Source of the DNA: Candidatus Thorarchaeota archaeon
Lineage (GTDB): Archaea > Asgardarchaeota > Heimdallarchaeia > Hodarchaeales > Hodarchaeaceae
Reading direction: 5' to 3'
NCBI GenBank assembly: GCA_048882505.1
Contig: JBHLRO010000009.1
Span: 90,001 to 122,000, forward strand
DNA length: 32,000 bases
The notes beneath the pieces were generated by a model that saw nothing but the letters and a program-made list of their open reading frames with translations, ran no database searches and was not told the DNA's origin. The position numbers were made by a program, and so were the translations under genes. Positions 15,973 through 19,434 of the stretch are shown in pieces; position 1 is the first letter of the stretch; each line of letters starts with the position of its first letter.

Positions 15973-16983
15973 CTAAGCTTCGACCCTCTGCATTCGTTTT
16001 AGTTCCCCTTTCTCCAGTTCAACAAGGAAACCTTTGAGGATAGCTTCAGTATACTCACTTCCGGGGTTTAAACAATAAGTTCGACCAATCTTGACACTGC
16101 CAGGGGATTCGTGGATGTGTCCATGGAGTCCCAGAAGTGGCTGGTACTTTTCAATTGCCTTTCTTACAGCTTTACTACCTACGGGGCCGCGAACCGGTTC
16201 CCCTCCACTATATCCCGCATAGGTAAGATCGGGATTCAATAACGGAGCCTCATCGATTTTACTTTCAAAAGGTGGAGCATGAAAGCAAAAAACCGCATTT
16301 TCCAGATTTCGGATAAGGGGAACGAGTTCTTCGATCTTGGCCTCAATTTCATCATCATTTGTCTCTCTGTAGGTGTGCCAAGGTGTTGGATTGGTCCAAC
16401 CATAGGATATCATTTCATGGTGATCATCCAAATCTACCTTTGCCCCCTCTCCAAAGATAACACGGGGATCTTTATTAAGAATTTCATCAATCGCAAACTT
16501 ATCGTCATTTCCTGGACATATGATAATCTGGGTACCATTGGGAACCCGTTTTGATCCATCTTTCATGGTATCGTCAATCATATCTATCCAGAGTTGAAGG
16601 GAACTTGCTTCAACCTTGTCAAATAATTTGTCTAGGGCCCCACCTTTTATCATCTTGCCCTCTTCTGTTACAGAATCAAGCGATGAGAGTTGACGATCTT
16701 CCTCGGGAGTCAATCGATAAGTATAACAGCCAGCCATTCGTGCACGGAATTCGAAGTCCTTAATGTCTTTTTCAGTTCGCATTATTACTTCTTGTTCCGC
16801 CACTCCATAGATAGAACCCTTCCATGTCCCATCGGATTGTTCTATTATTGGGACTATCCTTTTTCCTGTTATATCGCCACCCATGATTAGAGTGTCTACC
16901 TTCAAATACTTAGCCGAGTTAAGAAATTTCCTCCATACGGCTTCGGATCCATGTATATCAGTGCAATAGAAGAATCTGACCAA
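15973..16983 (-). CDS. Calcineurin-like (Icc-related) metallophosphoesterase
   Basis: TDIHG, GGDITG, PGNDD, HAPP and GLHGHIHE motifs. TTG start lies 7 nt after GGGTGA. Confidence 0.9.
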   Translation of the reverse strand: MVRFFYCTDIHGSEAVWRKFLNSAKYLKVDTLIMGGDITGKRIVPIIEQSDGTWKGSIYGVAEQEVIMRTEKDIKDFEFRARMAGCYTYRLTPEEDRQLSSLDSVTEEGKMIKGGALDKLFDKVEASSLQLWIDMIDDTMKDGSKRVPNGTQIIICPGNDDKFAIDEILNKDPRVIFGEGAKVDLDDHHEMISYGWTNPTPWHTYRETNDDEIEAKIEELVPLIRNLENAVFCFHAPPFESKIDEAPLLNPDLTYAGYSGGEPVRGPVGSKAVRKAIEKYQPLLGLHGHIHESPGSVKIGRTYCLNPGSEYTEAILKGFLVELEKGELKRMQRVEA

Positions 16984-17478
16984 GCTAATTTCACCCTATA
17001 TTGCTATTTCTTCGCTTTTTTTAAAATAACTTAGCATATATCAATCGGCGTTCTATTTACCACAAATCCATAAATTGAATTATTTATTTTTCGAAAGATT
17101 CCCAGATTTCTATAACAGATTACTGAATTGGAGGTAAAAAGCGTTAAGAATCTTGATTTAGGAGGAAGTATGGTTTTCGCTTGGTTTTAATTAATGTATA
17201 TGAAGAACAGTGTAAAGTATTACTGAGGATCTTAAGTTAGATTTCCTAGTTAAGGAGTAATGCACGATGCTCTACCCCCTGTAAATTAAAAAAACGGCCT
17301 ATCGGTTCTGAAACCTTACGTTTCGCAGCAACGGAGGAGTTTCTAATTCAAATATAAATAGAGATTTCGGTCGAAAACCTTTTAATATTTCTATATTATA
17401 CAATTTTTATACCATTACTTTAGGAATAGAGATGCCTCTATTTTACACGGTGGCATTATGGGAAGGAGTGCAGTCCAA

Positions 17479-17493
17479 CGAAAAATATATAAA
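17479..17493 (+). promoter_or_regulatory. Putative BRE-TATA promoter of the APC permease
   Basis: CGAAAAA immediately followed by TATATAAA, about 190 nt upstream of the permease start. Confidence 0.5.
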
Positions 17494-17579
17494 ACCTCCA
17501 GTATGAAACCAATGGCTGTACAGCTGTCGATTTGTATTCTACAATTTATCGTACAAGTCGGCCTGTGTTAGGTAATCTA

Positions 17580-17667
17580 TTCGAAAATCACCAATGATGG
17601 GCAATCTATCCCTGTAAATACTTAGACATATAGGACAACTCCCCTAGCGATCATTGGTTGATTCGAA
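17580..17667 (+). promoter_or_regulatory. Stem-loop in the permease 5' leader ending next to the SD
   Basis: 17580-17598 (TTCGAAAATCACCAATGAT) pairs with 17650-17667 (ATCATTGGTTGATTCGAA), giving 17 bp with two bulges. The SD GGTGA is at 17668-17672. Confidence 0.5.
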
Positions 17668-17679
17668 GGTGAAATAAAC

Positions 17680-19434
17680 GTGTCTGAATCAAAAACCTAC
17701 GTCCGAGACGCAACAGGTCTCGTACGAGAAATCGGGGTAGTCACCGCAACTATTTTCATTCTTTCGAATGTTATAGGTGGCGGATGGCAGAAACGAGTCT
17801 TTCAAACTACCGGATGGGCTCCGCTACACCCCAGTAAAATTCTCTTGGTAGATCCACTTGTGGTCGCCTTCCTCCTGACAGGGATTGCCGCGATAGCAAC
17901 CGTTTTCGTATTTGCCGTCATGGCAACCGCGATGCCACGAGCAGGTGGCGGATACGTCTACATTTCCCGTACGATCAGCCCAGGGGTCGGCTTTGTTTCC
18001 GCCTGGGCTGAATTTCTAGGGATCGCGATTAGTTATGGTTTAATCGCAGTAGCCGTGGTTGAGTTCGCAGTACTATTCCTACCTGTGGCGGGGTATGATG
18101 TCGGATTCCTTGGATCTTCGCTCATGTTAACCGTCCTGGGAATAGTCTTTGTATTCCTGTTTGCAGGTCTTGCTTTCTTCGGGGCCTCCATGACAGGCAA
18201 GCTATTGCATCTGATGTTCTGGATTCCTGCAGTAATTACCGTAGCCATCTATGGCTCACTACTTCTAGGTGTTCTTAACCCAGCTGCAATGGAGACTGGT
18301 ATCCAAAGTATCACAGGTTCGTCGGCCGACGCTTGGATTGCAGATGCCGTCGCGTCGGGAATCGATTCACAAGCAGCTCCGGACTATTTTTCAGCAGTGA
18401 ACACAGCGATTTTAGGAGCCTATTGGTCATGGATTGGATATGCTGCTATCTCGTTCGCCGCAGGCGAAGTTAAAGAGGCAAATAGGTCTCTGCCTATCTC
18501 TCATCTCGCTGCCGGGTTCATTATCCTCGGCGTCTATATGTCGATTAGCACTTTGCTTTCTATGGCAGCCTCTGTCGGAACACATTCAAGTGGTTGGACG
18601 TTCTTCCAAGCTTTGGGTTTCAACAACTACGGTACAACTACCTCTGACCCCGCTAATACTGGGTATGGATGGATGCCGTTTGTAGCTGTAATGGCAGCGG
18701 ATGGCCTTGGATTTGGGTTCTTGGCTATTTTCTTTGCTGTCGCTGCTGTCTTGTGGCTAGCCAACGATCTTCCTCCATTCGTAACAACTTCTTCCAGAAT
18801 TCTCTTTGCCATGTCCTTCGACCGAGCTCTCCCTGAAGCCTTCGCTAAGGTAGACGAACGCTGGCACTCTCCTACCAACGCCATATTGGTGACCGCCATT
18901 ATTGCAATCCTTGGGTGCTTTGCTGAAGCCGGTACCTTCACAGTGGGCGGTGTAATACACATCCCTGTTCTCGCTGAAGCTCTAGGCAGTGGAATTACTG
19001 CAACCGATCTTCTCGACGGTATATTCTTCACTATGGCCTGTATTGCTGCCATTCTTCTCCCAAGACGGTTAAAGGATGTCTATGAGAGAACTGCATGGCG
19101 TCCGAAGATTGCTGGTATGGAAGGCGTCGTTTTAATAGGTATTATCGCGCTAGTTGCGAATATCTATCTGGATCTCGTTATCCTTGGAGAATTTGGCATT
19201 TTAACACCCATGGCTGGTCTAGAAGCTATTCCATTGCTTGGAGCTATGCCCATTGTGCCTGATCCCAATGCTTTGATACCTAGCGGCGATATTATAGCTT
19301 CGCTGAATTGGGGTTTCTACACCATCTTGGTACTCGTTATAATAGGGGCCATTCTGTACTTCTATTATCGCTCGTACTATTCGAGAAAAGGTGTGGACTT
19401 CACAACCATCTACGCTTCGATCCCTCCAGAGTAG
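17680..19434 (+). CDS. APC-superfamily amino acid/polyamine permease
   Basis: YVRDATGLVRE, AMPRAGGGYVYISR, AGEVKEA, SRILFAMSFDRALP and WHSP..AI motifs with at least 12 TM segments. GTG start lies 7 nt after GGTGA. Confidence 0.93.
   Translation: MSESKTYVRDATGLVREIGVVTATIFILSNVIGGGWQKRVFQTTGWAPLHPSKILLVDPLVVAFLLTGIAAIATVFVFAVMATAMPRAGGGYVYISRTISPGVGFVSAWAEFLGIAISYGLIAVAVVEFAVLFLPVAGYDVGFLGSSLMLTVLGIVFVFLFAGLAFFGASMTGKLLHLMFWIPAVITVAIYGSLLLGVLNPAAMETGIQSITGSSADAWIADAVASGIDSQAAPDYFSAVNTAILGAYWSWIGYAAISFAAGEVKEANRSLPISHLAAGFIILGVYMSISTLLSMAASVGTHSSGWTFFQALGFNNYGTTTSDPANTGYGWMPFVAVMAADGLGFGFLAIFFAVAAVLWLANDLPPFVTTSSRILFAMSFDRALPEAFAKVDERWHSPTNAILVTAIIAILGCFAEAGTFTVGGVIHIPVLAEALGSGITATDLLDGIFFTMACIAAILLPRRLKDVYERTAWRPKIAGMEGVVLIGIIALVANIYLDLVILGEFGILTPMAGLEAIPLLGAMPIVPDPNALIPSGDIIASLNWGFYTILVLVIIGAILYFYYRSYYSRKGVDFTTIYASIPPE

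Follow-up and report, generated by a model that had tools for sequence, protein, structure and literature searches.

The leader of an APC-superfamily permease gene in an uncultured Asgard archaeon raises the question of how a long 5' untranslated region is to be read when it carries a long stem directly before the Shine-Dalgarno (SD) sequence and an exact complement of that SD within one arm of the stem. A sequence-only reading of the locus had proposed a translational switch controlled by a ligand or protein; a structured leader of a more ordinary kind is the other obvious answer. Asgard archaea are the closest prokaryotic relatives of eukaryotes. To our knowledge very little has been learned of their post-transcriptional control, and validated archaeal riboswitches are few. 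The window analyzed here is a stretch of 32,000 nucleotides (contig C9, positions 90001-122000) from a 4.3 Mb genome of 41% GC. That genome is labeled G000 and its closest relative G016. Relatives of the permease come from MAGs named Hodarchaeota or Heimdallarchaeota, which places the genome in the Asgard order Hodarchaeales. The leader region lies within a 696-bp gap between two divergent genes:

15973-16983, minus strand: metallophosphoesterase-like gene, divergent neighbor of the permease gene
17680-19434, plus strand: APC-superfamily permease gene, 584 amino acids, GTG start (Pfam AA_permease_2, 3.7e-22)

An NCBIfam search with the permease returned weak matches only, and a search of the PDB by sequence found no relative. 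Thirteen orthologues, 63-83% identical, are present in the genus, and none was found in 39 genomes of other genera; the GTG at 17680 aligns with the ATG of all of them. The permease homologues P0003-P0008 are 79-82% identical.

The extent of the leader is predicted from its promoter, which lies far upstream of the start codon and is preceded by a conserved block:

17462-17476, no strand: block kept with G016 (G000/G016 alignment), directly 5' of the BRE
17479-17496, plus strand: BRE/TATA-like promoter cGAAAAATATATAAAAcc, kept in G016, its motif class present in 14/14 orthologues

The BRE/TATA-like sequence reads cGAAAAATATATAAAA, and in each of the 14 orthologues a near-consensus BRE/TATA (GAAA-N-TTTATAA) stands between -158 and -236. 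The transcript start is predicted at ~17515-17520, and the earlier estimate of a leader of about 160 nt for the permease mRNA is plausible. Since the BRE/TATA is far upstream in every orthologue, a long leader appears, from promoter distance, to be genus-wide. A TGTAC in the G000 leader sits at the same distance from the TATA box as the TGTGC of other leaders. Another BRE/TATA, further upstream at 17369-17392, is also conserved between G000 and G016. A genome-wide map of promoter distances made with a strict BRE/TATA pattern gave too few matches for use, and a search of the literature found no TSS map for Asgard archaea. The block before the BRE holds a quasi-palindrome, GGAnTGCAnTCC (GGAGTGCAGTCC, ~17465-17476, judged palindromic by eye), that is possibly a regulator site, and a second conserved palindromic block in the G000/G016 alignment, GCTGTACAGC, coincides with the predicted TSS; the two flank the promoter and may be protein sites.

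The stem that attracted attention to the locus, here called P2, is a bulged stem of 17 bp directly before the permease SD:

17580-17598, plus strand: P2 5' arm TTCGAAAATCACCAATGAT, 82% identical to G016
17599-17649, plus strand: P2 interior, 51 nt, 20/50 (40%) identical to G016
17650-17667, plus strand: P2 3' arm ATCATTGGTTGATTCGAA, 88% identical to G016
17668-17672, plus strand: Shine-Dalgarno sequence GGTGA, invariant in 13/14 orthologues

Direct reading of the letters bears out the whole sequence description given previously: the BRE/TATA, the 17-bp stem with its 51-nt interior, the SD GGTGA abutting the stem, and TCACC in the 5' arm (17588-17592). Three helical segments make up the stem: 6 bp (TTCGAA/TTCGAA) followed by a 2-nt bulge, then 2 bp followed by a bulge of 1 nt, and lastly 9 bp. 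The 16S rRNA of this genome ends in ...GGATCACCTCCT, complementary to GGTGA, so that GGTGA is a true SD, and the 16S-like AUCACC of the P2 5' arm copies the rRNA tail. The 3' arm carries an SD-like GGTTGA together with the GATT motif that is common to SD-adjacent hairpins of the genus. RNAfold forms P2 with pair probabilities of 0.5-1.0, and folding energies are z = -1.7 for the P2 segment and z = -1.5 for the whole leader. Stems of this strength, counted with a minimum seed of 8 bp, a maximum loop of 80 nt and a duplex energy of -17.0 kcal/mol or lower, number five in the real 32-kb window, as compared with 0-9, or roughly 5, in each of 30 Markov shuffles. The expected number of TCACC occurrences in 150 nt is 0.12. 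Judged from the G000 sequence alone, P2 and its anti-SD are unremarkable, and it is because of its place and its conservation in G016 that P2 rises above chance.

If the leader is a switch, a ligand or protein would keep P2 from closing, UCACC would pair with the SD and permease translation would fall, or the reverse would occur. Two mutually exclusive pairings had been claimed and are physically possible: when the P2 3' arm is scrambled in silico, TCACC captures GGTGA at p ~0.45, and SD accessibility is halved, to 0.25. That reduced value is, however, about the median of the genome (0.27), and the forced TCACC:GGTGA state, an alternative of only 5 bp, lies 5.6 kcal/mol above the minimum free energy. 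In addition, transcription reaches the 3' arm of P2 earlier than the SD, and the anti-SD would thus be captured first. An SD-sequestering operator or an RNA thermometer would hold its SD paired in the default fold; here the SD has a mean probability of 0.54 of being unpaired, at the 89th percentile of 346 other GGTGA-led genes, and its partial pairing involves only GGU (p ~0.5), with AUC at 17575-17577. SD accessibility stays at 0.50-0.54 when the 5' arm is scrambled or the interior is replaced by GAAA, and with P2 wholly deleted it is 0.50, as open as in the wild type. Because deletion of P2 leaves the SD open, any benefit of P2 as an "insulator" exists only because the anti-SD is present. 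The effect predicted by these in silico folds is small, and P2 would mainly neutralize an anti-SD that belongs to P2 itself.

Conservation of the arms also bears on the switch. In G016 the arms are conserved, including TCACC and the SD-like GGTTGA (GGTAGA), a hairpin on the SD side would be a good place for a repressor protein, and GATTT of the 3' arm is conserved in the genus. Against this, TCACC occurs in the leaders of G000 and G016 only and in none of the 12 others, and the interior, 40% identical between the two, holds no aptamer core: it matches at 20 of 50 positions between G000 and G016, and the 12 other leaders are of different sequence, so that no ligand-binding core conserved across species was found. 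Nor was recurrence before several genes of one pathway found, the element being single-copy by covariance model R1 and BLAST and confined to G000 and G016 among 22 genomes. An Rfam search had been proposed as a check; with Rfam 15 (cmscan, E <= 10) it gave no match on 16500-18200 of the window, and on the 13 orthologous loci it gave only two chance-level matches. Taken with the energetic cost of the alternative pairing, the lack of a conserved interior, Rfam match or second copy argues against control by a ligand or protein, which we regard as improbable.

Several other classes were considered and set aside. A search for tRNA and tmRNA found none, and there were no Rfam matches to snoRNA in the window. 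A C/D box sRNA, with C (RUGAUGA) and D (CUGA) boxes next to a terminal stem, was rejected: AUGAUGG is present, but the 3' arm is not preceded by CUGA, and the sequence in G016 is AAUAAUG. A K-turn or a BHB intron was rejected by inspection, P2 having, in place of two 3-nt bulges separated by 4 bp, bulges of 2 nt and 1 nt that are 2 bp apart. A MITE or other inverted-repeat mobile element was discarded as well, the sequence being unique in the genome and in the genus with no direct repeat flanking the arms; other CCAATRAT...ATYATTGG pairs have unrelated interiors.

The leader of G016 is the only one recognizably homologous to that of G000: BLAST of the window's own genome and 60 relatives found a further copy in G016 alone, and model R1, run on 22 genomes of the genus, matched once in G000, once in G016 and nowhere in the remaining 20. 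The blocks conserved between the two species include the minus-strand promoter of the divergent gene, the P2 arms and the SD region. G016 keeps P2 and also a hairpin near the predicted 5' end, P1, that is separated from P2 by a conserved linker:

17526-17562, plus strand: P1, 5'-proximal hairpin of 12 bp with a 13-nt loop, supported by z-score and by pair changes in G016
17563-17572, plus strand: linker CTGTGTTAGG, conserved and unpaired, 9/10 bases identical in G016

P1 folds with z = -2.9 in G000 and z = -3.2 in G016, where one pair has changed in a compensatory way from U-A to C-G, a second is altered on one side and a third is broken. The linker bases identical in G016 are 17564-17572, TGTGTTAGG, and a wider segment (alignment A3) has 14 of 19 positions identical between G000 and G016. 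All 24 of the scored P1 and P2 pairs form in G000 and G016 alike, two of the changes being compensatory and three one-sided, in a structure derived partly from the same two sequences and with the P1 pair broken in G016 left out. A covariation shuffle control matched the observed values in 125 of 500 runs, with almost no power at n = 2 sequences. The probability of P2 in G016 ranges from 0.27 to 0.94 with the length of flanking sequence folded. Across these two sequences, the pair-preserving changes of P1 and P2 are suggestive of RNA structure. Among the orthologous leaders, for which the earlier reading had proposed a test of covariation, P2 is kept with a compensatory change in G016 and is present in G000 and G016 only. 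By comparison of the two sequences, then, the 17-bp stem is real and is kept in one close relative.

Conservation of the arms as sequence would also be expected of a DNA-level element, in which a transcription factor would bind the inverted repeat and the promoter palindromes (GGAnTGCAnTCC, 5' of the BRE, and GCTGTACAGC, on the predicted TSS) and would block the template or draw it into a loop. The half-sites of P2 are, however, 60 bp apart from center to center and the distance from the TATA box down to P2 is 70-150 bp, while equivalent hairpins of the genus vary in spacing and sequence and yet stay complementary. Tolerance of G-U pairs also argues for RNA: P1 has three, which favors RNA of the plus strand, and those in P1 and the basal part of P2 of G016 fit only plus-strand RNA. 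Binding of this kind at the DNA level is very unlikely.

The same alignment brings up a short open reading frame that starts at the ATG at 17512 and has 19 codons in G000 and 28 in G016, where its stop falls inside the 5' arm of P2, overlapping another ATG. Were it translated, the ribosome might remodel P1 and P2 and so couple the ORF to the permease gene. The ATG and first nine codons (MxVQLSxCI) are conserved, and a TAATG/TGATG stop-start overlap is found at the same alignment position in both species. Against translation, the frame is not conserved (the stretch is 86 nt in G000 and 87 nt in G016), no SD precedes the ORF, the predicted TSS coincides with the ATG or lies just downstream of it, the third-position bias is not significant (4 of 7 changes), and the other 12 leaders have no equivalent. 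Coupling through this ORF is extremely unlikely. A leader-peptide attenuator was likewise rejected, on the difference in frame between G000 and G016, the missing SD and the absence of the ORF from other leaders.

A further alternative is that P2 is neutral and specific to its lineage: in the ancestor of G000 and G016 a stretch flanked by a 9-bp inverted repeat would have been inserted or expanded and would have persisted with no function in itself, the preservation of pairing being a matter of luck. Stems equally strong arise about five times per 32 kb by chance, P2 is carried by two related sequences while the other 12 orthologues are without it, and its deletion in silico leaves SD accessibility unchanged. 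Neutrality is at odds with arms that are twice as conserved as the interior, with the five of six variable pairs that stay paired, and with a search of genome and genus that gave no repeat family or other copy. It also fits poorly with the position of P2, exactly at the place of a hairpin that is conserved in the genus. We consider a neutral origin unlikely, though it deserves to be weighed seriously.

That position becomes apparent from the remaining orthologues, whose leaders differ in sequence and share a layout. Nearly all have a 5'-proximal hairpin. A hairpin of 6-7 bp that ends 1-5 nt before GGTGA is present in 8 of 14 orthologues, whereas only 3.4% of 349 other GGTGA-led genes of the same genome (G000) have an SD-adjacent hairpin of at least 6 bp. 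The arms of these hairpins vary (AAATCT/AGATTT, AAGTCT/AGACTT, AAAGTCT/GGACTTT and others), their loops are 3-8 nt, and a GATTT motif in the 3' arm is conserved in the genus. P2 occupies the exact place of the SD-adjacent hairpin. Its basal helix, AAAAUC/GAUU with GAAGGUGA, aligns with AAAUCU/AGAUUU-AAAAGGUGA of other leaders, and its 3' arm can be aligned locally (TAGATTTCGAAGGTGA of G016 vs TAGATTTAAAAGGTGA of G002, and also vs G009); these alignments are short and score only near the top of the null range. From position and motif, P2 looks like an enlarged, lineage-specific form of the genus-wide SD-adjacent hairpin. Identities of 9-10 nt, TTCGCAGCA and CCCTGTAAAT, among the upstream region, the P2 interiors and other leaders of the genus (the type A leaders described below) were within the null range of scores.

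Nine species have in common a leader of a different sequence, type A, with a hairpin of constant length (43-44 nt). The base of this hairpin is conserved (AUGCUUAC/GUAAGCAU) and its upper stem, though variable in sequence from species to species, pairs in each of them (z = -3.7 to -7.1); a covarying form of the hairpin occurs in G010. Besides the hairpin of invariant length, the type A form has conserved single-stranded boxes and a run of six T. A search with a type A model found matches only before the permease gene, and a loose pattern search with the hairpin arms gave a frequency not above control. Two weak R2 matches, in G013 and G001, were to an unrelated conserved stretch. A metagenome scan for more relatives added only two loci from Hodarchaeales, of which the first is identical to G002 and the second carries yet another leader. 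It might be that the permease leaders across Hodarchaeales are one fast-evolving, undescribed cis-regulatory RNA that answers a substrate-linked protein or small molecule, the type A form included and P2, with its anti-SD and decoy SD, being its expression platform in G000 and G016, a proposal that we hold to be quite improbable.

The explanation that we favor, with confidence about evenly balanced, is a constitutive structured leader in which an SD-adjacent clamp insulates the SD or stabilizes the mRNA. A stabilizing or insulating leader would be expected to have conserved hairpins close to its 5' end and next to an SD that is left exposed, and this arrangement is found here in the predicted folds. 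Transcription from the conserved distal promoter would produce a leader of ~160 nt with the layout that appears typical of the genus: BRE/TATA far upstream, a 5' hairpin (P1), a middle part that varies and, immediately before the SD, another hairpin. This last hairpin would have grown, in the lineage of G000 and G016, into the 17-bp P2, which encloses an interior free to vary. P2 would pair AUCACC of its 5' arm with the SD-like GGUUGA of its 3' arm, AUCACC would thereby be held off the true SD, and the SD would remain single-stranded just beyond the base of the stem. P2 might then serve as a clamp or insulator, so that the SD would stay accessible regardless of how the rest of the long leader behaves, and P1 and P2 together may protect the mRNA from decay. 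The transcript start, the folding in the cell and the insulating or stabilizing function are inferred.

As it stands, the permease leader is an ordinary-looking structured 5' UTR. It is important to emphasize that an anti-SD motif and a long stem in one sequence are insufficient for calling a riboswitch. The permease leader keeps its architecture across the genus although its sequence has been replaced, a pattern suggesting that selection acts on shape and not on a ligand pocket, and it offers a concrete and testable Asgard case.

The leader resembles riboswitch expression platforms that act on translation through anti-SD and anti-anti-SD helices (thiM TPP, SAM-II) and RNA thermometers in having an anti-SD pentamer, an SD-like competitor and the true SD within 90 nt, with two possible pairings that exclude each other. 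It is unlike them in having no conserved aptamer or Rfam match and an SD that is open by default, and, unlike in riboswitch platforms, its anti-SD is kept in two species only. A parallel in design may be the E. coli ompA leader, a stabilizing, structured 5' UTR with a 5'-terminal hairpin and a second hairpin next to the SD. The permease leader likewise would exceed 130 nt and work without a ligand, one hairpin lying close to its 5' end and another directly against an SD that is exposed; it belongs to an archaeal transcript that would meet other decay enzymes and it has no sequence relation to ompA, and the likeness is architectural only. Among archaea, long 5' UTRs are seen in the primary transcriptomes of T. 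kodakarensis, M. mazei and P. abyssi, their regulatory role being unproven, and in T. kodakarensis 245 mRNAs have 5' UTRs of 50-300 nt, 20 of which encode transporters (PMC4247193). The predicted permease leader falls within the same range of length and likewise precedes a transporter gene. It differs from those cases in that its TSS is predicted and its host is an uncultured Asgard archaeon, and in that its architecture is conserved through the genus while its sequence turns over.

A leader that we designate type A is common to the orthologous permeases of nine species (alignments A2 and A4), at the following loci:

L012, 3259-3478, minus strand: type A leader
L014, 160-382: type A leader
L013, L016, L018, L019, L020, L021 and L022: type A leaders

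The type A hairpin is of constant length (43-44 nt) and is closed at its base by AUGCUUAC/GUAAGCAU. The sequence of the upper stem varies among the species, yet it is paired in each of them (z = -3.7 to -7.1), and the boxes GUUCGCAGUAGAAAA and CAAUGA follow downstream of the hairpin. Each genome has one copy of the leader, and Rfam holds no type A leader. As a structured RNA, the type A leader is better supported than the leader of the window.

Mid-leader, the type A sequences of genomes G002, G008, G007, G015 and G012 also carry an A-rich/U-rich hairpin (AGAAAAA...UUUUUUCU) whose 3' arm is a run of T6-T9, located about -113 from the start codon in G012 and about -87 in the other four. Oligo-T is the termination signal in archaea, and premature termination at this run is therefore conceivable in type A leaders. 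The run is absent from the leaders of the window genome (G000) and of its closest relative (G016), the two genomes with the bulged P2 stem adjoining the permease Shine-Dalgarno sequence.

One of the conserved boxes in type A leaders, at about -110, is the 9-mer TTCGCAGCA. It recurs in the P2 interior of G016 (locus L028, 2925-2934) and in the G000 sequence that precedes the two promoters (window 17321-17330). Similarly, CCCTGTAAAT occurs twice in the window, at 17277 and within the P2 interior (17610). Match scores for these recurrences lie inside the null range, so they may reflect chance or remnants of rearrangement.

Short open reading frames are present in the leaders of both P2 genomes:

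window 17512-17571: short leader ORF
window 17594-17617: short leader ORF
L028 2831-2917: short leader ORF

The first 9 codons of MAVQLSICILQFIVQVGLC (G000) and MVVQLSSCINGFLRKSANVLGNVSENHQ (G016) are similar, and the frames diverge thereafter. Where the 5' arm of P2 reaches its top, a stop codon and an ATG overlap in both genomes (TGATG or TAATG). The permease itself begins with GTG in G000 (window 17680); the aligned position is ATG in 13 of 13 orthologues.

Several elements surround the permease promoter:

window 17078-17096, minus strand: strongly conserved block reading TTTCGAAAAATAAATAAT, about 100 nt before the start of the divergent metallophosphoesterase-like gene
window 17369-17392: second near-consensus BRE/TATA, ggtCGAAAACCTTTTAATATttc, 110 bp upstream of the first, kept in G016
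window 17421-17444: hairpin GGAAUAGAG-AUGC-CUCUAUUUU, about 40 nt downstream of the second BRE/TATA
window 17465-17476: palindromic block GGAGTGCAGTCC, directly 5' of the BRE, kept in G016
window 17514-17523: palindromic block GCTGTACAGC, at the predicted transcription start, kept in G016

The minus-strand block is likely the BRE/TATA of the divergent gene. The second BRE/TATA may act as a promoter in tandem with the first, or it and the hairpin downstream may mark a short transcript of their own. The two palindromic blocks flank the permease promoter; archaeal activator and repressor sites typically lie just before the BRE and at the transcription start.
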